From the IMG/VR virus record IMGVR_UViG_3300034069_000992, positions 1-62,861 of that record: 62,861 bases of DNA. One strand, written 5' to 3'. The notes beneath the pieces are model-generated. The model ran no database searches. It was not told the origin of the DNA and worked only from the letters and a program-made list of their open reading frames with translations. Positions 544 to 25,538 of the stretch are shown piece by piece. This DNA comes from a virus. The position numbers were made by a program, and so were the translations under genes. Position 1 is the stretch's first letter. Each line of letters opens with the position of its first letter.

Positions 544-1141
544 CGGCGTTCAGCAATAGCCGGAGCGTCTTGTGAAAGCCAAGTAGCGCCTCCGCGCCGC
601 CGGTATCGATGATCGTGCGAAGCTTCGGGTCGAGCAGACCGTTCGGATCGACACGGTTGGAAAGCGACGCCATGAACTCCGACAGCGCGCTGAACACTTC
701 GCCGGCAGTCCGCGCCACTTCCGCCGCCGGAATGTACGCCCGCTGCTCCCGCTCCCGCTCTTCAACCTCTGCCGCCAGCCGGTTGAGGATCTGAAGTTCG
801 CGGGCTGGCAGATGCGCCGACGTCGCTTCCTCGTGACGATCACGCGTCAGGGTTCCGAGGATGGCATCGCGGCGGCGCGAGATGTCGACCGCGGCGGCGT
901 CGTTGCGCGTCTCGAAGTCGAGCATGGCCTTCAGCGCGGCGCGGGCGGGGTAGATGTGTTGCGTGCCCTGAAGAATGGGCTGCGGCATGCCGGGCATCTG
1001 CTTTTTGGCCGTGACGAACGGACCCTTCGTCGTGCCGTAAACGAAGGCGAGATCCTCCAGCGACAGCATATCGTTCGGCTTCGCGCGTTTCAGCGCCGCC
1101 GCTATGTCCGATCGCCGGTTTGGATTCGCCTTCGCTCCCAC
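470..1141 (-). CDS. terS: Terminase small subunit, Nu1-like (N-terminal wHTH)
   Basis: GTG 1141 lies 1 nt after the upstream stop, preceded by GGAAGG. LSLEDLAFVYGTTKGPFVTAKKQMPGMP...IYPARAALKAMLDFE resembles the lambda Nu1 N-domain. Sits immediately upstream of and overlaps TerL. Confidence 0.6.
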   Translation of the reverse strand: MGAKANPNRRSDIAAALKRAKPNDMLSLEDLAFVYGTTKGPFVTAKKQMPGMPQPILQGTQHIYPARAALKAMLDFETRNDAAAVDISRRRDAILGTLTRDRHEEATSAHLPARELQILNRLAAEVEEREREQRAYIPAAEVARTAGEVFSALSEFMASLSNRVDPNGLLDPKLRTIIDTGGAEALLGFHKTLRLLLNADAVSGTPRTTPDRARKSRVRRKRT

Positions 1142-1142
1142 G

Positions 1143-1667
1143 TCAGCCTTCCATCTCGGACGCAAGCCGAGCAAGACGCTGCAAGCGCTCGACCTCCAGA
1201 GCCAGCTTGAACGCCTTTGGGTCTGCCGCCTCTGCAACCCACTTCACCAACTGGCGCTCATCGGTGACGCATCGGCGGGCAGCGTGAAGCAGCGGCAGAA
1301 CCGTCGTCGCTGGCAGATCGTCGAACTCGCGCATAACGGCCGCGATGTACTCCTGCTTTGAGTCCGGCGACATGCGTTGGCCGATCAGCGCTACGATCGA
1401 GGTGACGACGGCAAACAGTTCCTCTGTTGATGCCGGCTCGCTCTCGTGCAGAGCGCCATCGAGTGCGAGCCTGATGTCCGAAGCGTATTGCAGAAGATGC
1501 TGATCCTTCAGCCTCTCGTCATCCGCGCCGTTTTCGATCAGCGAGATATAGTGCGAGCGCGTCACGACCAGCCTGTTCCGCCGGGCCATACCGTCTTCCG
1601 GTGACAGGGTTGTGAGTTTCGCGGGTGTCGGGTCCATAAGTTTTTGCCTTTTCGAGAGTCCGCGCAA
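1143..1667 (-). CDS. Hypothetical protein (start uncertain; 1637 or 1589 possible)
   Basis: 174-aa ORF in the minus-strand operon; overlaps the end of the initiator gene if the longest start is used. Confidence 0.5.
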   Translation of the reverse strand: MRGLSKRQKLMDPTPAKLTTLSPEDGMARRNRLVVTRSHYISLIENGADDERLKDQHLLQYASDIRLALDGALHESEPASTEELFAVVTSIVALIGQRMSPDSKQEYIAAVMREFDDLPATTVLPLLHAARRCVTDERQLVKWVAEAADPKAFKLALEVERLQRLARLASEMEG

Positions 1668-2616
1668 ATACCTTCACGCGCAGGATATAGTCGATGTCGA
1701 GTGAGAACGGGACTGGATACCGGTCCGTTGGCGACCCCTCGCCTCGCAACCACGGGTCTCCGCGGATCGCTTCAAACATCGCGTCCCAGACAGCGTAGGC
1801 ATCTAGCGTCCCGCCGGAATCGCGAACGATCTCCGCCGCACGCCGCGCGATTCCTTTCTGCCTCGAGTCGTTCCAGGCTTGCACCGCATGCGTGCGAGGA
1901 AAATCCTCAACCAGTCGCGCCCAACCTTGCTTCACATAATCGATGATTGTGCCGCGTTGGTCGACGGTTACGAGTGCTGTCGAAGAAGAGATCGGATCTC
2001 CAAGCAGATCCGTGGGGGTGGCCTCTCCCGTAAGGGAGAGGGGGGAATCTTCTAACTTCAGAGGTTCAGGATTCAGAAGTTCTATGGCTCGCTCACCAGT
2101 GGTCGAGCGCGCTCGCTCACCGGTGGTCGAGCGCGCTCGCTCATATTGAGCGAGCGGTTCATCCCCTTCGCCGTCATCCTGATCGTCTTCGGCGAAGGCA
2201 TATGTCACCGACGATGACGGCATTTCAAAGGTGGCGCGCACGTTGAGCGTGTACGTGCAACCAGCAACGCCGCCGCTCTTCTTCATGCGAGGCCGCCGGA
2301 GCAGAAAGCCCTTTTCCTCCAGTTCGTTGATGTGCCGCTTCAGCGTGGAAATCGGCATGTCACACGCGTCGGCAAGCGTGGCTTGCTTCGGCCACACGTC
2401 GAAGTCGCCGCGCTTGTTGTTGACCATATGGGCCATCACCATGAGCACTTTCCATGCTGTCGGTGTCAGCCCTCGGGCATGCAGCGCCCATGAAGTTGCT
2501 GCTATGTGACGAGAGATCATTTGCCGACGATCCAATGGATCGAAACGACCACGCTGCATATTATCAGCGCAGCGATCAGGATCTTCTCGATTATCGTAAT
2601 ACGGACTGGAGCCCAT
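1519..2616 (-). CDS. Replication initiator-like winged-helix DNA-binding protein
   Basis: N-terminal wHTH-like segment (WPKQATLADACDMPISTLKRHINELEEKGFLLRR). Directly downstream of DnaB. Contains a tandem DNA repeat encoding ERARSTTG x2. Confidence 0.6.
   Translation of the reverse strand: MGSSPYYDNREDPDRCADNMQRGRFDPLDRRQMISRHIAATSWALHARGLTPTAWKVLMVMAHMVNNKRGDFDVWPKQATLADACDMPISTLKRHINELEEKGFLLRRPRMKKSGGVAGCTYTLNVRATFEMPSSSVTYAFAEDDQDDGEGDEPLAQYERARSTTGERARSTTGERAIELLNPEPLKLEDSPLSLTGEATPTDLLGDPISSSTALVTVDQRGTIIDYVKQGWARLVEDFPRTHAVQAWNDSRQKGIARRAAEIVRDSGGTLDAYAVWDAMFEAIRGDPWLRGEGSPTDRYPVPFSLDIDYILRVKVFARTLEKAKTYGPDTRETHNPVTGRRYGPAEQAGRDALALYLADRKRRG
2087..2155. repeat. Tandem 24-bp repeat (2.4 copies) ending in a palindrome; candidate origin iterons
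   Basis: gctcgctcacc(a/g)gtggtcgagcgc at 2087-2110 and 2111-2134, then gctcgctca-tat-tgagcgagc (2135-2155). Flanked by perfect IR CCTCTCCC-GTAA-GGGAGAGG (2022-2041) and a relatively AT-rich stretch at 2045-2085. Confidence 0.7.
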
Positions 2617-5723: not shown

Positions 5724-6319
5724 TCCGGATTGAGATCCGAATTGTCGCCCGTGTACGGCTCTTGCGTCGCCGCGTCGGGCTGTGCACCCTTCGCATGCGC
5801 TTCCTTGATCCGCTTACGCTTCTCCGCCGGCGACTCGGCCTTGGGCGCTGCCGCGTCGAACTCAGCATCGCGCCGCTTACGCTCTTCAGCGGGATCGACC
5901 TCCGGCTCATCCGACTTCGGGGTTTCGACATCCGCTACCAGCTTGTCGATTTCCTCATCGTTCTGCGGTTGCTCGCGACGGCCAAAATCGGGCTTGATGA
6001 TGTTGCCCGGCTCAGCGCCCTCCGCCCGATCGACGAGATCGCCGATGGACCACTCGGCCGCATCGATCAGACCCGTCAGTGAGCGCCAGATGTCCTGCTG
6101 CTCATCGCTCTCTAGGCCATCCAGTGCGAGGAAGATCCGCGCTGCCTTCTTGTTGACCTTGAAGCCAACGACGGTGTCGTAGATGCCGCCGATCTCGCCG
6201 TTGATGCCGGCGATGCGTTCCTTCTTCGGCTTGATTCCCCGAAGACGCTGGATTGCGCCCCGGTAGTTGGGCGGTTTCATGTCGTTTTGGACACGATCCG
6301 CAGTCGCACGATCTGCCAT
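5720..6319 (-). CDS. Hypothetical acidic protein
   Basis: Start ATG 6319 preceded by GGAGAA; stop overlaps the RuvC start (ATGA). The longer track ORF (to 6445) would overlap the Cro-like gene. Confidence 0.6.
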   Translation of the reverse strand: MADRATADRVQNDMKPPNYRGAIQRLRGIKPKKERIAGINGEIGGIYDTVVGFKVNKKAARIFLALDGLESDEQQDIWRSLTGLIDAAEWSIGDLVDRAEGAEPGNIIKPDFGRREQPQNDEEIDKLVADVETPKSDEPEVDPAEERKRRDAEFDAAAPKAESPAEKRKRIKEAHAKGAQPDAATQEPYTGDNSDLNPE

Positions 6320-6848: not shown

Positions 6849-7439
6849 ATGGGAGCGACGCGCCCGTACCTGCTCATCTACAAGGGCAAGAAGCATATCA
6901 TCGAGGCGGCGAACGCCGCGCTCGCCGTGCACCACGTCGTCGGCGCTGACATCAGCGAATTGCGTCCGGCGCGTGCCGCCGAGGTGACGCAGTGGATGCG
7001 CGAAAAAAACGAAATTCCGGTCGCGGACGGCAAGCGCGTGGATGTTGCGGGTGTCGTGGAGAGCACGCCAGGCGTGGAGGCGAAACCCGATCCAGCTAAC
7101 GATCTGATCGTCGCTAAGAACGGCAGCGACGCCGATCGTGCGCTGCTGTGGTTTGAGATGGCTGCTGGCTTCGATCGTACTGACGAGGCGAACACAACAT
7201 CGGCGGCGGAGACAGTCGGAGTTTTCGCGCGCATGCATCCGCGTGGTGTGCTCGATCTCATGACTTTTGATGTGCTGCGCCAGCGCGTGCCGGCTTTCGG
7301 CGAATTGTTGGTCGCTGGCACGGTGTCGAACACCGTTGACGCTCTGCGCGCTCGCTTGGAAGAGCAGCCGATGACGTTCGACGCAGTTGTGAAGGCGATG
7401 ACCGCTGGCATCGAATTGGAGCAGACGGTCGCCGGATGA
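6849..7439 (+). CDS. Hypothetical protein
   Basis: 196-aa ORF, GGAGAA SD 7 nt upstream of the ATG. Confidence 0.65.
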   Translation: MGATRPYLLIYKGKKHIIEAANAALAVHHVVGADISELRPARAAEVTQWMREKNEIPVADGKRVDVAGVVESTPGVEAKPDPANDLIVAKNGSDADRALLWFEMAAGFDRTDEANTTSAAETVGVFARMHPRGVLDLMTFDVLRQRVPAFGELLVAGTVSNTVDALRARLEEQPMTFDAVVKAMTAGIELEQTVAG

Positions 7440-17604: not shown

Positions 17605-19430
17605 AAACCTACGGGAAGGTGCTGCTGGAGGTTGGGCGGAACGCAAGATGGCATATCAAGGATCTGTCACCGCACGTCGCGGTGGCGTTCAAGCGTCTGT
17701 TCCCCCGTGTCGATCAGTATGCGACCGAGTTCTTCATTAGCGACAGCGACGATGCCAGGGCCGATCTTTACTGGTTCATGAGCAGATATCCGCTCGAAAC
17801 GGTGCACCTCGCGCGGCTGAAGGCCGGCGCCAACGCCGTCAGAGATCGAATCGCGCGTCGCGGCGAGATCTTGAGCCCCGATTGGAAGCCGGATGCGACC
17901 AAGGGCATCCGCGAGGGCGAGGCGCCGTACATCTACCAGAGCCAGGCGGCCACCATAGCCGTTGGACAGGGCGGGTTGCTGCTCGCCGACGACGTGGGCC
18001 TGGGCAAGACGGAAGGCGCGCTCACGGCGCTCGCCACCGGCGCCCCTATGCCCGCTGGCGTCGTGGTGCAGGCGCATCTCGCCTATCAGTGGCAGCAGCG
18101 GATCGAGAAGTTCACCACCTTTACCGCGCACGTCATCAACGGCACGACACCGTACTCCCTGCCGCCGGCCGACGTGTATATCTTCCGCTACACCAACATC
18201 GGCGGCTGGATCGACTTCCTGAAAAACGGATTACTGAAATCGGTAATTTACGACGAGATCCAGGAACTCCGGACCGGGACTGAGACGGCGAAAGGCCGGT
18301 GCTGCTCAATCGTCAGCGCGCAGTCGAAGTTCAAGATGGGGCTCACCGCCACCGCCACGTACAATTACGGCGATGAGATCCACACGGTGATGGAATTTCT
18401 CAATCCGGATCTGCTCGGCGAGCGGGAAGAGTTCCTACGCGAGTGGTGCTCTGCCGGCAGGATCGTGAAGCAGCCCGATGCGCTCGGCGAGTTCCTGAAG
18501 GAAACGGGATGGATGCTCCGACGCGACGAGAACGATCCAAACGTGCAGCAGTCGATGCCGAAGCCGAACATCATCCCGATCGAGGTCGACTGGAACGACA
18601 ACGACGTAGAGGACGAGTCGGAGTTGATCCGCAAGCTGGCGATGCGCGTCATGGGCGGCAGCTTCCACGGTTCCGGCAGTGCGTCTCGCGAACTCGATAT
18701 ACGCATGCGCCAGATGACCGGGGTCGCCAAGGCGCGATCGGTGGCGGCCTATGTAAAGATGCTGCTTCAGGACAATGAGCGCGTGATCCTCACCGGCTGG
18801 CATCGCGAGGTCTATGCGATCTGGTACAAGGCGCTGGCACCCTATCGGCCGGTCTTTTACACCGGGACTGAGGACGGCGGGCGCAAGCAGATCTCCATCA
18901 ACAACTTCACCGTTGGCCGCAGTCGCGTCTTCATCCTCTCCAACCGCTCCGGCGCCGGCATCGACGGCCTACAGCACTATTGCTGGGAGACGGTGGTGGG
19001 TGAGTTGGATTGGTCGCCGCAGATCCATAAGCAGATCATCGGCCGCACCCGCCGCCCCGGGCAAAAGCACCAGGTCAACGCGCACTTCCCTTACGTCACG
19101 CAAGGCTCCGATCCGGTGCTTATGGAGATCAACGCCATCAAGAGCGATCAGGCCCGCGGCATCCATGATCCGGGCATCGTGCAGGAGGCGCGGCTTACCG
19201 AAACCAGCCGAGTGAAGCGCCTGGCGCAGTATGTGCTCGATCAGGAAGCCCCGGAGGACACAGGATGCGCGATATGTGGCGGTCCGAGCACGGGACAGCC
19301 GCTCAACATCGTTCCGCTCGCACATGCCGACCGATATCAGGCCGGATCGGAGCGCGAGGCGCTATTCGGCCCCGAAAACATCTGGTTTCTGTGCCGATTG
19401 CACCAGGAAGAAGAGGCGCAGGCCGCTTAG
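17598..19430 (+). CDS. SNF2-family helicase
   Basis: LLADDVGLGKT (motif I), VIYDEIQELR (motif II), ILSNRSGAGIDGLQ...IIGRTRRPGQ (helicase C). Confidence 0.88.
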   Translation: MLKTYGKVLLEVGRNARWHIKDLSPHVAVAFKRLFPRVDQYATEFFISDSDDARADLYWFMSRYPLETVHLARLKAGANAVRDRIARRGEILSPDWKPDATKGIREGEAPYIYQSQAATIAVGQGGLLLADDVGLGKTEGALTALATGAPMPAGVVVQAHLAYQWQQRIEKFTTFTAHVINGTTPYSLPPADVYIFRYTNIGGWIDFLKNGLLKSVIYDEIQELRTGTETAKGRCCSIVSAQSKFKMGLTATATYNYGDEIHTVMEFLNPDLLGEREEFLREWCSAGRIVKQPDALGEFLKETGWMLRRDENDPNVQQSMPKPNIIPIEVDWNDNDVEDESELIRKLAMRVMGGSFHGSGSASRELDIRMRQMTGVAKARSVAAYVKMLLQDNERVILTGWHREVYAIWYKALAPYRPVFYTGTEDGGRKQISINNFTVGRSRVFILSNRSGAGIDGLQHYCWETVVGELDWSPQIHKQIIGRTRRPGQKHQVNAHFPYVTQGSDPVLMEINAIKSDQARGIHDPGIVQEARLTETSRVKRLAQYVLDQEAPEDTGCAICGGPSTGQPLNIVPLAHADRYQAGSEREALFGPENIWFLCRLHQEEEAQAA

Positions 19431-21160
19431 ACGGTGGCGATTGCCACCGAAACGACGTCTGTATCGCCATCGTCGAAGGTGGCGATACAGCGCACCAGCG
19501 CCTCTTGAGGCGTGCCCCCACGCACCCGAACCGACGCCAGCAGGCCATCCCACGTCGGATCTACCAGTTCCAAGCCGCCATCGGGCTGGAAAACCACCTT
19601 CACGATCGCCCGGCCTTCCGAAAAGTCAGTGAGATCGACGCCGTAGCGCCGTGACGTCTCCGGAGCACGATCAGGCCAGCGCAGTTCCATGATTGCCCCT
19701 CTCTTGGGTGTGACGATGCGCGTAGGCGTAGCAGGCGCATAGACGATGCGCGAGACAGCGGCCGGGCGGACGATGAAGTCGTCGTACGCCGGCGGCCGAG
19801 ATGCCCCGACGTCGAACAGAGCCGCCAATCCGGCGAAACTGAAGATCCCAGGCTCGCCAGCCAGCCGGCGGCTGAGCAAAAGGCCCGCGCCTACCGATGC
19901 AAGGGCGAAAGCGGCCGCTCCAGCGCCGAATCGACGGTAACGGGGGAAGGAAGCGGGCTTTCCGCTGGTCGAAAAGATGCCGGAAGAGGCTAGAAAACGG
20001 TGTCCGAAGGCCAGATTTGCGGCCGATACGACCACGAGAAACGCCCCGGTGGACGCCATAAGGGACCGCGCGCCGATCTTTGTGAGCGCAACAGGCATAC
20101 CGTTGAGGGCAAATGAGCCCTTGGAAGCCCCGATACTGCGGTTCAATCCGAGGTTTATAGCCTGCCCGACGAAGCTAAAATCGCTTTTTCCGGCTGGGAG
20201 AAGGTGCCCGGTAAGCAGATTTACGGCTTTGCCCAGGAGCGAATAGCTGCCCGGCGCTGCGGTAAGTAAGCGCGATCCTCGCAATACAACCTGGTTGCCT
20301 GTTAGCCCGTACGCGCCAGCCGAGATTGGCATGGCGTATCCGCGCAGCAGGTTGGCCCCGACACCTGATAGTTGGAACGCGCCCGTCTGCGCTGAGATCG
20401 TCGTTCCTGCCGATGCTCCAGTCGTCGGCGCGGCCGACTTATATGGGTGCGCATCCGGCAGCAGGGATTGCATACCCCACTTCCAAGCAAGATAGCCTTC
20501 AAGCTTCTGCCGATCGCTGTCCGACAGGATGTAGTTGAAGACGAGGCTTTCTTGGATGAAACCGGTGAGAAAGTACTTCTCAACCGCGCCGCGGCCGAAG
20601 GTAAAGCTGTAGGCTGTCGGTGTATTATACGACAGCGTGCCGGTTTCCATTGAACCGCCATCGATATAGCCGGTTACGGCACCGGCATTAAGACCGAAGA
20701 CGTTTACGACACCTAGCGCGTCATTATTGAAGTTGCGTGCTGACGCAACTCCGCTGCCAAGAACTTCCCAGGTCGTCGTATAATAGGCATCAATGCCCCG
20801 GGTGGAGCCATTTACCTTGCCGCCATATTCCACGTAGCGGCCGCCACTGGCTTTGCCGACCACCGCCATCATCGACGGGGCGCTTGATCCTGTTGAGAGA
20901 CCTGAAGAAGCGCCGTAACCCGCCGAAAGGATTTGGCCTCCGGCGAATTGCAACGCCGGAAGCCCGTTCAATCCCGTAGGCGAGTAGGTCGGTAAGCTGG
21001 TGGTGACGGTGCCGTTAGAAAAGGTTGTCTGCCAGCTTCCCTTGTTAGCGATCGAATTTACGTGCGAACCATCGGCGTTCATCACGATCGTCGACGCATC
21101 GGAGACGTCCACCCATACTACGGGCGGAACGGCTAGGCTGGCAGGCGTCCAGAGTGCCAT
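19427..21160 (-). CDS. Tail fibre protein: N-terminal LamG/ConA-like lectin domain, about nine 22-aa repeats, C-terminal domain
   Basis: RQKLEGYLAWKWG motif closing a LamG-like domain. Repeats GAFQLSGVGANLLRG / GAYGLTGNQVVLRGS / GSYSLLGKAVNLLTG / SDFSFVGQAINLGLN ... (DNA about 19800-20370). Confidence 0.65.
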   Translation of the reverse strand: MALWTPASLAVPPVVWVDVSDASTIVMNADGSHVNSIANKGSWQTTFSNGTVTTSLPTYSPTGLNGLPALQFAGGQILSAGYGASSGLSTGSSAPSMMAVVGKASGGRYVEYGGKVNGSTRGIDAYYTTTWEVLGSGVASARNFNNDALGVVNVFGLNAGAVTGYIDGGSMETGTLSYNTPTAYSFTFGRGAVEKYFLTGFIQESLVFNYILSDSDRQKLEGYLAWKWGMQSLLPDAHPYKSAAPTTGASAGTTISAQTGAFQLSGVGANLLRGYAMPISAGAYGLTGNQVVLRGSRLLTAAPGSYSLLGKAVNLLTGHLLPAGKSDFSFVGQAINLGLNRSIGASKGSFALNGMPVALTKIGARSLMASTGAFLVVVSAANLAFGHRFLASSGIFSTSGKPASFPRYRRFGAGAAAFALASVGAGLLLSRRLAGEPGIFSFAGLAALFDVGASRPPAYDDFIVRPAAVSRIVYAPATPTRIVTPKRGAIMELRWPDRAPETSRRYGVDLTDFSEGRAIVKVVFQPDGGLELVDPTWDGLLASVRVRGGTPQEALVRCIATFDDGDTDVVSVAIATV

Positions 21161-21399
21161 TATTCGAGGCTGGTACGGCCGCCGAGTGCCCGGGCGATCA
21201 GCCCGCGCTCCTGATCGATGTCGAAGAGGCCGGCTTCAGCGGCGCGGATCTCGTCGTCGAGCGCCTCCATCTGCGTCTGCGCATTGACTGAAACTTCGTC
21301 GCGCTGCTCGCGCAGTGGTGTCGACTGTCCGAGGATCGAATCACGCTGCTCGCCAAGTTCGGCGAAGCGCGCGCGCAATGCTTCTGGTGTCATATCCAT
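21160..21399 (-). CDS. Small coiled-coil protein (fibre-associated)
   Basis: 79-aa ORF; stop/start overlap with the fibre gene. Confidence 0.5.
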   Translation of the reverse strand: MDMTPEALRARFAELGEQRDSILGQSTPLREQRDEVSVNAQTQMEALDDEIRAAEAGLFDIDQERGLIARALGGRTSLE

Positions 21400-21411
21400 C
21401 GGTGCAGATCC

Positions 21412-21864
21412 TTACGAGAGGGTGAGGACGCCGTTGGCGTCGTCGAAGTCGGCCGTCAACGTCTCGCCCGACGCGAGAGTGAACGATGCGCCATAATCCC
21501 ACCAGCCGATCAGGCCGCCGGACGTGGCGTTGTAGAGCACCGCGTAACGTGCCGGTCCGATCGATCCGCCCGACGCGCTGATGACGGTATCGGCGAGCGT
21601 CAGCTTGTAGATCCCGTTGGTTTGGGCCGACGAACTGACTGTCGTTTGCGGGCCGCCGGCAACATAGCCATTGCCTGCTGCGATTTCGGCGATATCAGCT
21701 TTCACCGCGTTGGTGCGTACCGGCAAGGTGTTAGTCAGCATCAAGCGCAGCGTATCCGATGCAAGGTTATGCTGCTTCTCGGCGACGGCCTTCACGAAGG
21801 CGTCGAATTTATTAAATGCGGCCACGGCAACGATCTCCATCAAGGGCTCGCCCGCAATTATCAC
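21412..21864 (-). CDS. Hypothetical structural protein (start 21840 or 21864)
   Basis: 150-aa ORF, first gene of the isolated minus-strand fibre unit. Confidence 0.5.
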   Translation of the reverse strand: MIIAGEPLMEIVAVAAFNKFDAFVKAVAEKQHNLASDTLRLMLTNTLPVRTNAVKADIAEIAAGNGYVAGGPQTTVSSSAQTNGIYKLTLADTVISASGGSIGPARYAVLYNATSGGLIGWWDYGASFTLASGETLTADFDDANGVLTLS

Positions 21865-22078
21865 ATCGATTTGCCGTTGTCGTTTCGCATAATTCTCGAA
21901 AATCTCGATGTGACCAATTCAGCGGTCCACAACCGCTATGGCCGAAGGGGTCGGAAAGAAGGACCCGGACCCCGGGGGGGGTGCATATGTCCGCGCCCGC
22001 GCACCCGTACCTGTGCGCCCGCGTGCAAGGACTCGCGCGCCAATCTCCAGCCCGGCGCGAGCGCGCGCAGCGTGCTTC

Positions 22079-22097
22079 ATTCGCAATATTTGCGAAT
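22079..22097. promoter_or_regulatory. Perfect 19-bp palindrome (candidate operator) abutting a candidate -35 TTGCAA
   Basis: ATTCGCAA-TAT-TTGCGAAT at 22079-22097. TTGCAA at 22102-22107 and CATTTA 17 nt downstream; about 80 nt upstream of the first ORF of the ribozyme-containing operon. Confidence 0.45.
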
Positions 22098-22185
22098 TGT
22101 GTTGCAACCTCCGATCAACTGGCGCATTTAGACCATGCCAGCACCGGGAAGCCCGAGTCGCCACGGCAGAAACGAAGGAACTACG

Positions 22186-22434
22186 ATGACACTCGACACC
22201 ATCGACAGCACCGAACTAGCGCGCCGCTTCGCGCTCAACCCTTTTAACCTTGGCGGCATTGCCAACGCCCCACGCCTGAGCGCCCACGACTTCAGCGCCG
22301 CGTGCTTCGAGGCTCAAGGCCGCGCCGCCTATCCGCATGGCCGTAACCCTTACAACGCTGGCACCATGGCTAACACGCGTTGGGCGCGCGGTTGGCATCA
22401 GGCCGATGATGCCACGATCGCAAAGGAGGCTTGA
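22186..22434 (+). CDS. Rmf/CrpP-like small protein
   Basis: GAAGGA SD. GRAAYPHGRNPYNAGTMANTRWARGW resembles the RMF/CrpP G..G....PY.....W..GW pattern. Confidence 0.45.
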   Translation: MTLDTIDSTELARRFALNPFNLGGIANAPRLSAHDFSAACFEAQGRAAYPHGRNPYNAGTMANTRWARGWHQADDATIAKEA

Positions 22435-22437
22435 GCG

Positions 22438-22680
22438 ATGCGCCACTATTTCACCGATGCGATCGCCTACACCAAGCCGGAGCCGCATCATCGCCTTTGC
22501 CTTCAGTTTGACGCGGTGACACTTCAGCAACGCGGCAAAGACAATTTCGCTGTGCGCTACGGCAAGCAAGTTGATGCAGATGCTACATATGCGGAAGCGT
22601 GTGCACTGTTAGGCGCGGCCTTGATGCATCAAGCCGCATGTGGGGGCCTGTTAGACAATCGAGAGAAAGGCGAACGCTAA
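22438..22680 (+). CDS. Hypothetical protein
   Basis: 80-aa ORF 3 nt after the upstream stop; its TAA is followed immediately by hammerhead 1. Confidence 0.55.
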   Translation: MRHYFTDAIAYTKPEPHHRLCLQFDAVTLQQRGKDNFAVRYGKQVDADATYAEACALLGAALMHQAACGGLLDNREKGER

Positions 22681-22736
22681 GGCGAAACGGGGCGCACGCC
22701 CCGTCCGCTAGGCTGGCATCCTAGCGCTGATGAGCC
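22681..22736 (+). ncRNA. Type II hammerhead self-cleaving ribozyme (HHR-1)
   Basis: GGC-GAAA-[CGGGGC GCAC GCCCCG]-UC|-[CGCUAGG CUGGCAU CCUAGCG]-CUGAUGA-GCC. Full conserved core, GUC cleavage triplet; predicted cut between 22705 and 22706. Confidence 0.88.
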
Positions 22737-22759
22737 TGCCACGAATGAAAGAACACACG

Positions 22760-22990
22760 ATGCCCGTATCCCTCGCCAAGTCGGTTGACCTGTCCAAGCG
22801 CACCGCACCCGCACCCGTGATCGTGTGCACCGTTGACATGGGCGCACGCCCCGCCCGCATCGATCGCAAGCGCGCACCTAGCGCCAAGGCTCGCACCGTG
22901 TCGCGCCGTACCGCACGCCGCATGAAGTTGACCGCCGCCTTCCTCGCGTTCGCCTTCCCTGCGGACCTCTCCGCCTTCGCTGCCCGCTGA
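22760..22990 (+). CDS. Hypothetical basic protein
   Basis: ATG 22760, about 24 nt after HHR-1; low-complexity, coding status less certain. Confidence 0.4.
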   Translation: MPVSLAKSVDLSKRTAPAPVIVCTVDMGARPARIDRKRAPSAKARTVSRRTARRMKLTAAFLAFAFPADLSAFAAR

Positions 22991-23005
22991 TCTGGAGCCG
23001 ATACG

Positions 23006-23617
23006 ATGTCTGATTTCACCACCCTTTCCGTTCCCGCAGATGCCACGCCAGCGGACAAGGTGCGCGCCGCGTGCAATGCGCTCGGCCTTACGATCCGCGC
23101 CGAGTTCGTGCCCTTTAGCAAGTCGCGCAATGCGAAGCCCCGCGACGGGCAGGACAAGCCGTGGCGTTCGCTGAACTGGAACATCACGCTTGAGCGCAAC
23201 GGGCGCGACGTGATGACGACGGAATACAGCGCTGGCGAAGGCAATTGCCCCGCGTCCAAACTGCCAGCAACCGCGCTCCGCCGCGCGCAATATACCGATG
23301 CGACGGCGCGCCGGATGGCCGTAGACCATGAAATCGAAACCGGGCGGGAAGCGCGGTTTACCTTCGGCGGATACCTCAAGCAAAATGGTCCGCAGATACA
23401 GCCGGACGCGCCAAGCGTGATTATGTCGCTAGTGCTGGACTCGTCCGTGCTGGATGCTGGCAGCTTCGAGGATTGGGCGGCGGAATACGGTTACGATACC
23501 GATAGCCGTTCGGCGGAGCGCACCTATCAGGCGTGTTTAAAAACCGCGTTGAAGCTGCGCGCCGCGATTGGTGAAGTCGGGCTGGAATTGCTCCGCGCTG
23601 CCGGGGAGGATTTCTGA
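23006..23617 (+). CDS. Hypothetical protein
   Basis: 203-aa ORF with protein-like composition. Confidence 0.6.
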   Translation: MSDFTTLSVPADATPADKVRAACNALGLTIRAEFVPFSKSRNAKPRDGQDKPWRSLNWNITLERNGRDVMTTEYSAGEGNCPASKLPATALRRAQYTDATARRMAVDHEIETGREARFTFGGYLKQNGPQIQPDAPSVIMSLVLDSSVLDAGSFEDWAAEYGYDTDSRSAERTYQACLKTALKLRAAIGEVGLELLRAAGEDF

Positions 23618-23817
23618 TGGCTAAGAAATCCGGCTTCAATCTGTCGTTCGACGTTCGCAATGCGGCTTTTGACGACGGCAACCGGCCATACGAAGCCGCG
23701 CGCATCCTTCGCGAAATCGCCGATAAATTAGAGGCTCAAGCCTATGTGGGTGGCGGCCACGTCCGCGATGTGAACGGCAACACGATAGGCCATTGGGAGA
23801 TGACACCAACCGCATAG
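23617..23817 (+). CDS. Hypothetical protein
   Basis: 66-aa ORF, TGATG coupling; its TAG overlaps the first base of HHR-2. Confidence 0.55.
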   Translation: MAKKSGFNLSFDVRNAAFDDGNRPYEAARILREIADKLEAQAYVGGGHVRDVNGNTIGHWEMTPTA

Positions 23818-23879
23818 GCGAAACGCTCCGCCACCGTGCGGGGCGTCCAACCGGATCGGGAACCGGTTGCTGATGAGCC
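23817..23879 (+). ncRNA. Type II hammerhead self-cleaving ribozyme (HHR-2)
   Basis: GGC-GAAA-[CGCUCCGC CACCGU GCGGGGCG]-UC|-[CAACCGG AUCGGGAA CCGGUUG]-CUGAUGA-GCC; predicted cut between 23847 and 23848. Confidence 0.88.
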
Positions 23880-23903
23880 AGCCCTAGAAACGAAGGATTG
23901 CAC

Positions 23904-24227
23904 ATGCGCTATTTTGTCACCGTCACGCGCGACACCACGGAAAGCACGGTTATCACCGTTGACGCCGCAAACATGACAGCCGCGCGCGACGTCGCGATTG
24001 AGAAGGCCCGGAACGAAGCTGGCGCCTATAATTGGGTTCCGGACGATTGCACCGGTGGCGATCCGTATTTGGCTGATCCCGATGAGAAATTGCAGACAGC
24101 GGACGACGACGCGGACGACGACGCTTGCGGGCAATGCGATGGCACCGGCACCACCGACGCAATGGGGCGCGTAGAGCAATGCCCGGTCTGCGACGGTACC
24201 GGCACCCTCCAGACCGGCGAAATCTGA
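23904..24227 (+). CDS. Small protein with DnaJ-type CxxCxGxG zinc-finger pair
   Basis: CGQCDGTGT...CPVCDGTGT; ATG 23904 preceded by the GAAACGAAGGA leader. Confidence 0.6.
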   Translation: MRYFVTVTRDTTESTVITVDAANMTAARDVAIEKARNEAGAYNWVPDDCTGGDPYLADPDEKLQTADDDADDDACGQCDGTGTTDAMGRVEQCPVCDGTGTLQTGEI

Positions 24228-24230
24228 ACC

Positions 24231-24332
24231 ATGCTCTACAACCTCGCCGCCGCCGCTCAATATGCCTTTTTCGCCTTTGCTGGAGCCGTCGCGATTTACG
24301 CGATCGTCCGCACAATCAAGGATGCCCGCTAA
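24231..24332 (+). CDS. 33-aa predicted membrane peptide
   Basis: Read by eye (below the track cutoff): MLYNLAAAAQYAFFAFAGAVAIYAIVRTIKDAR; TAATG coupling to the next ORF. Confidence 0.4.
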   Translation: MLYNLAAAAQYAFFAFAGAVAIYAIVRTIKDAR

Positions 24333-24532
24333 TGCGCCTTTACCGCCTGATTGTGACAGAGCCGGCTCTGGGCGTAGTGAAGCGCGAGCGCTTCAACGCC
24401 GCTACCGATCTCGCCGCCGAACGCATCGCCGGGGATGCTTGGAACGCACCCTATTCGATCGCTGAACCGGGCCGCTATCGCCTGAAGCTGTACCGCAGCG
24501 GGGAACGCCGCCCGTTCCACACGATAGGCTAA
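24332..24532 (+). CDS. Hypothetical protein
   Basis: MRLYRLIVTEPALGVVKRERF... (C-terminal part of track ORF 24125..24532); stop 2 nt before HHR-3. Confidence 0.5.
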   Translation: MRLYRLIVTEPALGVVKRERFNAATDLAAERIAGDAWNAPYSIAEPGRYRLKLYRSGERRPFHTIG

Positions 24533-24534
24533 TT

Positions 24535-24596
24535 GCCGAAACGCCGCGCCTTGCGCGTGGCGTCCACCGGAACCGTCCACCCGGTGCTGATGAGGC
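24535..24596 (+). ncRNA. Type II hammerhead self-cleaving ribozyme (HHR-3)
   Basis: GCC-GAAA-[CGCCGCGC CUUGC GCGUGGCG]-UC|-[CACCGG AACCGUCCAC CCGGUG]-CUGAUGA-GGC. Stem II is swapped (GCC/GGC) relative to HHR-1/2; predicted cut between 24564 and 24565. Confidence 0.88.
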
Positions 24597-24617
24597 AGGA
24601 CACGAAACGAAGGAACG

Positions 24618-25538
24618 ATGATGCTGAACCTGTTCGATCACACGCAAGGCTTGCCCTACACCGCTGAGAAGCCCCGCGCCGCCGATGCGCACGAAATCCG
24701 CGCCTATCTGGAATGGCTGGCGGCGGTGCGTGGCATCACGATCCCCGCTGATGCCCGCTTCTATACGGCAGGCATTTGGACGGGCACCGGGGAGGATGCG
24801 CGGTGCGTAATGGATATGCCCGGCTATGGCGTCACCGATACGGGCACGATGGAAACGCTAGACGAGGATGGCGAAGTGATCCGCAAGGTTCCGCTCGCCA
24901 CCGACAAAAAGGGCAAGCTAGTGCTTACCGCTGCACAGATTGCCACCGCCTGCGCATTGCCCAAGGTTCGCAAAGCCCGAAAGGCCGCTGCAAAGCCCGT
25001 AGAGCGCGCCGAACCGGTTTCGACTACGTCCGCACCATCCGACGACGTTGTGGCGCTGCTGGCGCGCGTGGCGGCGCTGGAATCGGCAATGCGCACCGTT
25101 GGGCTTGCTGTCACCACCGCGAAGCCGGTTGCAGCTAACGACGATGCCGCGCCGCCGCGCCGCACTGAGCGCGAGCGCGCCGCCATCCTGCGGGCGTGGC
25201 GTATGCGGCGCGAGATGCGCGAGCGGGCGGACCTAGACCGGCGCGCGCTTGAGGCGGCGAACGTCTGGGCGCGCGCTGAAGTGGCGCGAGTTGGCGAAGC
25301 ACTGGAACAAGCCGCCAATGCCCGCACCGCCGCCACCGCCTACAAATCGGAGATGGAAGCCGCATGCATCCGCGCCGATCGCACTGAAGCCGATTTGCGT
25401 GGGGCGCGTGCTGAAGCGGCGGCGCTGGTGCGCAAGCTGGAGCAATCCCGCTCTGCCACCGTCACGCGGCGCGCGCTGCCTATTCCCATGCCTGTCGCCA
25501 CCGCGCTCCCCCGCGTGCTTGTGGGAGCGACACGATGA
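24618..25538 (+). CDS. Hypothetical protein with C-terminal coiled coil
   Basis: 306-aa ORF, GAAACGAAGGAA leader. Confidence 0.6.
   Translation: MMLNLFDHTQGLPYTAEKPRAADAHEIRAYLEWLAAVRGITIPADARFYTAGIWTGTGEDARCVMDMPGYGVTDTGTMETLDEDGEVIRKVPLATDKKGKLVLTAAQIATACALPKVRKARKAAAKPVERAEPVSTTSAPSDDVVALLARVAALESAMRTVGLAVTTAKPVAANDDAAPPRRTERERAAILRAWRMRREMRERADLDRRALEAANVWARAEVARVGEALEQAANARTAATAYKSEMEAACIRADRTEADLRGARAEAAALVRKLEQSRSATVTRRALPIPMPVATALPRVLVGATR

Follow-up and report, generated by a model that had tools for sequence, protein, structure and literature searches.

HHR-2, a predicted type II hammerhead ribozyme between two gene blocks of a phage operon, and its relatives at equivalent operon positions

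The analyzed DNA (IMG/VR record IMGVR_UViG_3300034069_000992, 62,861 nucleotides; referred to as the window) is, by its gene content, a tailed double-stranded DNA phage. Genes for the large terminase, the portal and an 1802-aa tape-measure protein were identified on the minus strand, and genes for RecT, a primase, a helicase and an ATP-dependent ligase on the plus strand. An operon of small plus-strand genes begins after the divergent intergenic region 21865-22185. Within 1.9 kb of this operon three co-oriented type II hammerheads were found on the plus strand (HHR-1, HHR-2 and HHR-3; Table 1). The subject of this study is the middle one, HHR-2, which lies between the three-gene blocks gC-gE and gF-gH. 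Downstream of gI, the genes overlap or are tightly packed as far as the ligase.

The order of the HHR-2 segments from 5′ to 3′ is GGC GAA A-CGCUCCGC-CACCGU-GCGGGGCG-U C / CAACCGG-AUCGGGAA-CCGGUUG CUGAUGA GCC, where the slash marks the predicted cut. The topology is that of type II, with stems I and III capped by loops and stem II open to the flanking RNA. The invariant core is complete (C3 U4 G5 A6 N7 G8 A9, G12 A13 A14, A15.1-U16.1 and H17), and the core-adjoining pairs 10.1-11.1 (G23877-C23819), 1.1-2.1 (C23848-G23869) and 15.1-16.1 (A23823-U23846) are intact. Stems II, I and III comprise 3, 7 and 8+1 bp, respectively, including one U.G pair and no multiple mispairs.

A preliminary description of the element had claimed this architecture and sequence, and each of its coordinates was right on rereading the sequence. 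The described stem III of 8 bp with one G:U pair is present, and the A15.1-U16.1 pair is found in addition. The 7 bp given for stem I form between 23848-23854 and 23863-23869. The cut had been placed between 23847 and 23848, and hammerhead numbering, which makes 23847 C17, predicts the same site. The element was said to start on the last base of the TAG of the open reading frame (ORF) 23617-23817, which agrees with the TAG at 23815-23817 and G23817 as its last base, and to end 24 nt ahead of the next start codon, which is the ATG at 23904.

Table 1. Positions of HHR-2, its parts, the neighbouring genes and ribozymes, and the two-hairpin elements of related contigs. Positions are those of the window unless a contig is named.
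Feature	Position	Strand	Remark
HHR-2, type II hammerhead ribozyme	23817-23879	+	sequence, Rfam RF02276, minimum free energy (MFE) fold, descriptor
HHR-2 stem II, 5′ strand GGC	23817-23819	+	
HHR-2 G12 A13 A14	23820-23822	+	
HHR-2 A15.1	23823	+	
HHR-2 stem III, 5′ strand CGCUCCGC	23824-23831	+	
HHR-2 stem III loop CACCGU	23832-23837	+	
HHR-2 stem III, 3′ strand GCGGGGCG	23838-23845	+	
HHR-2 U16.1	23846	+	
HHR-2 C17	23847	+	
Predicted self-cleavage site, 3′ of C17	23847/23848	+	hammerhead numbering on the sequence
HHR-2 stem I, CAACCGG	23848-23854	+	
HHR-2 loop I AUCGGGAA	23855-23862	+	
HHR-2 stem I, CCGGUUG	23863-23869	+	
HHR-2 CUGAUGA	23870-23876	+	
HHR-2 stem II, 3′ strand GCC	23877-23879	+	
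HHR-2 3′ tail A-GCCCUAG	23880-23887	+	agrees with Rfam consensus tail AGCC
gF initiation region GAAACGAAGGA and start codon	23887-23906	+	Shine-Dalgarno AAGGA 23893-23897; ATG 23904
gA	22186-22434	+	first operon gene
gB	22438-22680	+	TAA adjoins HHR-1
HHR-1, type II hammerhead	22680-22744	+	predicted cut 22705/22706
gC	22760-22990	+	76 aa
gD	23006-23617	+	203 aa, phrog_4273
gE	23617-23817	+	66 aa, phrog_9027
gF	23904-24227	+	107 aa, CxxCxGxG zinc-finger-like
gG	24231-24332	+	33 aa
gH	24332-24532	+	66 aa
HHR-3, type II hammerhead	24534-24604	+	predicted cut 24564/24565
gI	24618-25538	+	306 aa, first gene past HHR-3
L154 third two-hairpin element	L154 4757-4850	+	before gC homologue, as HHR-1 in the window, L006 and L152
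Further L154-type copies (n = 3)	L158 924, 1517, 3431	+	

For the assignment to a family, the full window was compared with all Rfam families by cmscan at gathering thresholds. Exactly three matches were obtained, all of them to Hammerhead_II (RF02276) and all on the plus strand. The covariance-model search, which had been proposed earlier as a check on HHR-2, gave 49.0 bits for positions 23816-23887 (threshold 37, E-value 4.8e-7) and covered the model over its full length (1-66). The matches at 22680-22744 (HHR-1) and 24534-24604 (HHR-3) reached 42.7 bits and 37.3 bits, the latter barely over the threshold of 37. The earlier statement that HHR-2 has the architecture of HHR-1 with other helix sequences holds by these Rfam matches and by structural comparison. 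No additional ribozyme was found in an Rfam scan of 15-35 kb at a permissive E-value. A descriptor of our own called for GAAA, H17 and CUGANGA, for capped stems I and III with no fewer than 4 bp each (stem III ending in U) and for a stem II with a minimum of 2 bp. It matched the window three times, at the same sites as cmscan, compared to a mean of 0.005 matches in 200 dinucleotide shuffles. The MFE fold of 23817-23879 was found to be exactly the proposed three-way junction (-28.3 kcal/mol).

A chance match or plain GC-rich hairpins are ruled out by the covariance-model score and the shuffle control. An intrinsic terminator at HHR-2 was rejected as well, since neither hairpin is followed by a U-run and no terminator was placed there by the consensus scan. 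ORFs that run over HHR-2, such as minus-strand 23636-23905 and plus-strand 23836-23976, were discarded as typical spurious ORFs of high-GC DNA. The real genes here are gE and gF, for which PHROG matches and proper Shine-Dalgarno sequences were found. The reading of HHR-2 as a type II hammerhead is based on the covariance model, the acceptance rules, the topology, the orthologues in sister phages and the intercistronic cluster context. Its identification as a genuine member of the type is thus supported by sequence and structure. HHR-2 is one more example of a published class, and both the class and its tandem arrangement in phages have been known since 2011.

The last base of the preceding stop codon is located 3, 2 and 5 nt upstream of C11.1 in HHR-1, HHR-2 and HHR-3, respectively, and a ribosome-binding site and a start codon follow approximately 25 nt past each of the three ribozymes. 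In the 62.9 kb the exact 11-mer GAAACGAAGGA was found only before gA (22169-22179), after HHR-2 (23887-23897) and after HHR-3 (24604-24614). Past HHR-1 a variant of the 11-mer is present, at 22743. The same leader was identified after every intercistronic element of four related contigs (L006, L007, L152 and L154) and in each case lies on the strand of the operon. From the sequence we infer, with a rough probability of 0.85, that HHR-2 is a functional type II hammerhead on a polycistronic plus-strand mRNA, which by its cleavage would uncouple, together with HHR-1 and HHR-3, the messages of the neighbouring gene blocks to the benefit of the phage.

The IMG/VR contigs L006 and L007 encode a helicase 75% identical to that of the window, and their corresponding operon contains type II hammerheads. 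Three hammerheads were found in L006 (13223-13286, 14708-14763 and 16356-16409) and at least one in L007, whose locus ends shortly into the gI homologue. The gI homologues of both contigs belong to the same operon. The contigs L152 and L153, which were reached via a gD homologue, also carry three hammerheads. Orthologues of HHR-1 are those located upstream of gC homologues and orthologues of HHR-3 those upstream of gI homologues. The latter are present in the operon of L006, where the copy lies directly 5′ of the gI homologue, and in that of L152.

In the sister phages L006 and L152, both known from metagenomes, the orthologues of HHR-2 are L006 14708-14763 and L152 5929-5984, and the sequence CUGAUGA(U)GCC-(A)GCCC(C)-…GAAACGAA(G/A)GAUUG is shared by copies of the HHR-2 type. 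Constant among the three orthologues are the core, the stem II strands GGC/GCC, the G-run of loop I and the C-run of the tail, as is the initiation region. Stem III differs, with 8 bp in the window compared to 5 bp and a GCAA loop in L006 and L152, and its pairing is kept. The third pair of stem I is A-U in the window and U.G in the orthologues of L006 and L152.

For HHR-2, a candidate pseudoknot of 3 bp was found between GGG of loop I (23858-23860) and CCC of the tail (23882-23884). The pseudoknots of HHR-1 (UGGCA:UGCCA) and HHR-3 (GUCC:GGAC) have a length of 5 and 4 bp, respectively. Those of the HHR-2 orthologues (GGGC:GCCC in L006, GGGG:CCCC in L152) are longer (4-5 bp) than that of the window copy. 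In the survey of viral contigs described below, Watson-Crick pairing of at least 4 bp between loop I and tail was observed in 41% of 166 copies among the matches listed.

At the ribozyme junctions, the DNA similarity between the window and L006 consists of short islands at 22725-22815, 23863-23907 (89% identical) and 24559-24616 (83% identical). The islands comprise the 3′ half of each ribozyme and the leader, and the first of them also enters the start of gC. For most of the genes between the islands no homology between the window and L006 was detectable. Islands at the ribozymes with exchanged genes between them point to selection on the RNA element itself. The same pattern could also result from conservation mainly at the level of DNA, in which the 3′ half of the ribozyme and the initiation region would serve as a recombination junction for cassette exchange and RNA cleavage would be secondary. 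Such a role is consistent with the restriction of the similarity at the junctions to islands of 47-95 nt with mostly unrelated genes between them, and with the recurrence of the initiation region at every junction in five phage contigs. However, homologous recombination would have very little length to act on in such islands, and the 5′ halves of the ribozymes (stem III) are not kept as DNA yet remain paired, which only selection at the RNA level explains. In addition, the layout of stop codon, ribozyme and start codon occurs in unrelated viral contigs with other leaders. A mainly DNA-level conservation is therefore regarded as quite improbable; the two readings, DNA junction and RNA cleavage, are not mutually exclusive.

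A different element was found in the sister phage L154 (gD 55% identical), which shares with L152 a collinear stretch (73% nucleotide identity) extending through gD and a 108-aa gene. A large gene after the third ribozyme slot is also common to both contigs (376 aa in L152 and 302 aa in L154). L152 has hammerheads at 5929 and 6803; in the orthologous slots of L154, one after gD and the 108-aa gene and one before the homologue of the 376-aa gene, GC-rich elements of 85-105 nt were found (~5927-6033 and 7113-7212). With the third copy (Table 1), each of the L154 elements sits after a stop codon and before the common leader GAACGAAGGAACGAA / GAACGAAGGA. The elements consist of GCG-N, a hairpin A of 6-7 bp and, at once thereafter, a long hairpin B, with CGC(C) at the start and (G)GCG at the end. 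In hairpin B, two helices of copy-specific sequence are separated by a 1x1 C-C mismatch, which is conserved. The fold z-scores range between -2.5 and -5.8 and thus indicate very stable structures. A strict descriptor detected the element neither in the window nor in 120 viral contigs that bear hammerheads. A known ribozyme was rejected as its identity, since no Rfam match was obtained even at E ≤ 10 and an A/U-rich conserved unpaired core is absent. The L154-type element could be a site for a nuclease such as RNase III, a stabiliser or an undescribed catalytic RNA.

These observations allow a proposal that is tentative and to which we give low odds: in this small phage group, which probably infects Sphingomonadaceae, the hammerheads may be an interchangeable version of a modular cassette at the borders of swappable gene modules. 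The cassette would, equally tentatively, consist of a stop codon, an RNA-processing element, the shared leader GAA(A)CGAAGGA and a start codon.

The three window copies and six orthologues retain the full set of about 13 invariant nucleotides in the unpaired core, whereas the surrounding helices have been rewritten. An intact core within rewritten helices argues for selection on catalysis and not on hairpins. It makes it highly improbable that HHR-2 is a decaying or very slow relic, in which the intergenic sequence would matter only as stabilising hairpins with a ribosome-binding site. Moreover, comparable prophage hammerheads cleaved when they were assayed (PMC3088659, PMC8782182). A relic would fit to the pseudoknot of 3 bp, which is at chance level, to the stem II of just 3 bp and to the existence of relatives without any hammerhead. 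It would also fit to the orthologous slots of L154, which are occupied by hairpins without a hammerhead core, so that hairpins alone may suffice.

No hammerheads were found in distant helicase relatives (53-58% identical; L008, L009, L131, L133, L140, L144 and L146, including Sphingomonadaceae contigs) or beside distant gD/gE homologues in IMG/VR (L001-L005). The ribozymes are thus specific to a lineage. Searches for extra members via gA or via the DNA pattern of ribozyme plus leader yielded only contigs already known and chance matches. Upstream of a gD homologue on the NCBI metagenome contig L156, a sub-threshold Hammerhead_II match with an intact core was observed (1624-1700, plus strand; 29.8 bits, E-value 0.021), possibly a further, more divergent hammerhead with a long stem III. 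The viral contig L005, which encodes a gE relative, contains a partial, sub-threshold match of 30 bits to an alphaproteobacterial tmRNA (796-966, minus strand) that may be the remnant of an attachment site.

For a wider comparison, a core-only pattern scan of IMG/VR gave at least 120 stretches, and 175 distinct descriptor matches from those contigs were surveyed. In 61% of the 175 listed copies the stop codon of a same-strand ORF lies 2-8 nt before C11.1, compared to 3.2% at random positions. A Shine-Dalgarno sequence with a start codon 10-39 nt past stem II was found for 75% (4.4% at random positions). Among the matches listed, many contigs carry 2-9 copies, at least two copies are present on about one third of the contig-strands, the median spacing within a cluster is 651 nt, and no contig has hammerheads on both strands. 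The layout of stop codon, ribozyme and start codon and the clustering are therefore the rule among the 175 listed viral copies. In a structural alignment of 28 viral copies, which was N-padded and fitted to the structure, double changes were found in 20 of 29 pairs. The covariation score of this fitted alignment was 0.54; shuffles gave 0.105, and slid partners did not exceed 0.07. On each of the contigs L021, L032, L063, L023 and L029, an array of 7-9 type II copies is packed into a few kb of one strand, which is far denser than in the window.

The position of the stop codon bears on a further explanation, in which cleavage would be conditional. A terminating or queued ribosome on gE would cover stem II and part of stem III and block the folding, the weak pseudoknot would make the rate depend on Mg2+, and the cut would thereby reflect translation or the physiological state and adjust the expression of gF-gH. 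In HHR-2 the stop codon overlaps stem II, and it adjoins this stem in 61% of the listed viral type II copies; the pseudoknot of HHR-2 is weak, and regulated cleavage of slow phage variants was raised by Perreault 2011 (PMC3088659). However, the assayed tandem prophage ribozymes cleaved efficiently during transcription (PMC3088659). Tight gene packing alone can account for an adjoining stop codon, and no element for ligand binding or alternative pairing was found at HHR-2. Cleavage that depends on these conditions is thus considered unlikely, and constitutive processing between the gene blocks is preferred.

An analogous cutting of a phage transcript is known from phage T7, in which RNase III cuts structured intercistronic RNA of the long early transcript into gene-sized messages with a protective 3′ hairpin. 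In T7, a host protein acts on a double-stranded hairpin, whereas HHR-2 would cut itself and leave the predicted 5′-OH and cyclic-phosphate ends. RiboJ is an engineered insulator that was built from a satellite-RNA hammerhead and an added hairpin. It is placed upstream of a ribosome-binding site and removes variable upstream RNA, which provides every gene with an identical leader. The common leader GAAACGAAGGA after the ribozymes (in the case of HHR-1 a variant) fits to this insulator logic, with the difference that HHR-2 is natural and of type II.

Natural type II hammerheads, their pseudoknot between loop I and tail, and multiple hammerheads flanking genes or short blocks in prophages were described by Perreault 2011 (PMC3088659). 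HHR-2 shares with the type II hammerheads of RF02276 the core, the open-stem-II permutation, the short stem II, the A-GCC-type tail and the GUC cleavage triplet (PMC3088659). It differs from them in the pseudoknot, which has 3 bp compared to at least 4 bp in most of them (PMC3088659), and its helix sequences are unique.

Co-oriented hammerheads that flank single genes or short blocks, as in the window, are found in Agrobacterium tumefaciens (where they flank ardA), Azorhizobium caulinodans and Clostridium scindens (PMC3088659). The arrays of the A. tumefaciens type and that of the window have three co-oriented copies within ~2 kb of a phage polycistronic unit in common, and the flanked genes are not conserved in identity. 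The triple array of the alphaproteobacterial A. tumefaciens prophage cleaves in vitro and, once cloned, in E. coli, and in vitro cleavage was also obtained with the arrays from C. scindens and A. caulinodans (PMC3088659). All sites of such arrays were cleaved in vitro, and those of the A. tumefaciens array in E. coli as well, whereas the array of the window is known from its sequence. Furthermore, no ardA was recognised in the window, which is a free phage-like contig of 62.9 kb and not an annotated prophage.

In Desulfovibrio vulgaris, three type II hammerheads near phage-like genes were found by cyPhyRNA-seq to cleave in vivo (PMC8782182). As in the window, these are located beside hypothetical and phage-like genes, and two of the copies are ~300 nt apart. 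Host lineage and genes are different, and in D. vulgaris the 2′,3′-cyclic phosphate and 5′-OH ends were mapped in vivo at the predicted sites, which shows activity and not function (PMC8782182).

In the preferred model of uncoupled gene-block messages, a polycistronic plus-strand phage mRNA that includes HHR-2 would start near 22100-22180. The emerging RNA would fold into the open stem II (GGC/GCC) and the capped stems III and I, probably assisted by the short contact of loop I with the 3′ tail. In the hammerhead family, the 2′-OH of residue 17 attacks the adjacent phosphate, resulting in a 2′,3′-cyclic phosphate and a 5′-OH (PMC8782182). In HHR-2, the 2′-OH of C17 (23847) would attack its own 3′ phosphate and cut the RNA between 23847 and 23848, presumably during transcription. 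The upstream product would contain the complete gE with its stop codon and end with the GC-rich hairpin of stem III and one C, with the 2′,3′-cyclic phosphate on 23847. As this end lies 30 nt past the intact stop codon, ribosomes could terminate normally. The downstream product would carry the 5′-OH on 23848 and the stem I hairpin from nucleotide 1, followed after ~45 nt by the unpaired conserved ribosome-binding region GAAACGAAGGA and the start of gF. In the predicted folds after cleavage, a terminal hairpin is found on both new ends and the Shine-Dalgarno sequence is mostly free. The 3-bp stem II and the short pseudoknot should allow the products to separate.

Cuts by all three ribozymes would result in four pieces, namely a 5′ piece with gA-gB, 1142 nt with gC-gD-gE, 717 nt with gF-gG-gH, and the rest from gI onward. 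Each of the internal pieces would begin with a hairpin and the common leader. Hairpins at the 3′ end hinder 3′ exonucleases, and a base-paired 5′ end that is not monophosphorylated hinders the 5′-end-dependent entry of RNase E. Since every piece would have hairpins protecting its ends and a uniform 5′ leader, the stability and translation of a gene block would not depend on the neighbouring blocks. The uncoupling and insulation of neighbouring gene-block messages would most likely be the benefit.

The fragment from 22706 to 23847 would start with the 3′ half of HHR-1 (…CUGAUGA GCCU) and finish with the 5′ half of HHR-2 (GGC GAAA and stem III). Since the stem II strands of HHR-1 and HHR-2 are complementary, a chimeric hammerhead could form, and paired ribozymes might excise RNA segments that are then circularised or spliced by hammerhead reversal or by an RtcB-type ligase. 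This complementarity is almost unavoidable, because GGC/GCC is present in most type II copies, and the chimeric stem II of HHR-2 and HHR-3 would contain a C-C mismatch. No RNA ligase gene was recognised among the scanned genes of the window. Spliced or circular products were sought in such arrays and not detected (Perreault 2011, PMC3088659). The probability of excision and circularisation is considered close to negligible.

Several points weigh against a functional ribozyme that uncouples gene blocks. The fold-energy z-score of HHR-2 is just -1.4 in a genome of 62-64% GC, so that the case rests on the core and the covariance model and not on stability. The 3-bp pseudoknot is no longer than those obtained with shuffled tails (mean 3.0 bp). 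HHR-2 could be slow, since at 0.5 mM Mg2+ the loss of rate on shortening the pseudoknot was 20-fold to over 100-fold (Perreault 2011, PMC3088659). Consensus scans placed no promoter or terminator for the ribozyme operon, and the evidence for a polycistronic transcript consists of gene packing and strand. The absence of hammerheads from the distant helicase relatives indicates that a phage of this type can do without them. Finally, the purpose of such hammerhead arrangements is called unknown in the literature (PMC3088659, PMC8782182).

The flanked genes have PHROG matches to families of unknown function only, and sequence searches of Pfam, NCBIfam, PHROGs and PDB gave nothing usable on their function. 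All 275 homologues of gD are without a name. For gF, a sub-threshold CxxCxGxG zinc-finger signal (anti-TRAP or DnaJ central domain) was found, which is a hint only. A sub-threshold match of gA to ribosome modulation factor (Pfam RMF, 21 bits compared to a cutoff of 28) is likewise a hint only.

L006 and L007 share the intergenic block 21873-21984 at the head of the operon with 74-76% conservation, and it can still be recognised in L152, with different neighbouring genes. It contains the hairpin AGCGGU-CCACAA-CCGCU and the GC hairpin CCCGGaCCCCGGG. Possible identities of the block are a promoter, a regulatory region and a small RNA. The sequence 22080-22096, ~90 nt ahead of the first operon gene, is a perfect inverted repeat of 7 bp (TTCGCAA-tat-TTGCGAA) that looks like an operator; the palindrome TTGCAA comes next, at 22102-22107. 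The segment that separates the helicase from the ribozyme operon, 19427-21864, encodes on the minus strand a 577-aa virion-structural-like, a 79-aa and a 150-aa protein. These genes are absent from L006, in which the operon directly follows the helicase, and L007 has a different insert of ~6.6 kb there. By this comparison, 19427-21864 is a variable insertion spot.

No tRNAs were found in the window, and among GenBank phages no relative of the ribozyme region was found beyond a weak 96-nt match to Erythrobacter phage XM05. Helicase relatives are located in genome contigs of Sphingomonas sp. AX6 and of a Sphingomonadaceae metagenome-assembled genome, which suggests the Sphingomonadaceae as host group.

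Since the class is already known to be common in phages, the identification of HHR-2 as a ribozyme changes little, and its value is comparative. The layout with a stop codon 2-8 nt upstream and a start codon ~25 nt downstream can sharpen phage gene calling and ribozyme annotation. If the L154 element is functionally equivalent, it could represent either a dedicated site for a nuclease or a self-cleaving RNA of a new kind, and in both cases it would reveal that RNA cutting or end protection is what the phage needs at the hammerhead positions. Ribozymes that are kept at the borders of exchanged genes, a shared leader and the non-hammerhead element of L154 make the hypothesis of uncoupling and insulation of gene-block messages directly testable.

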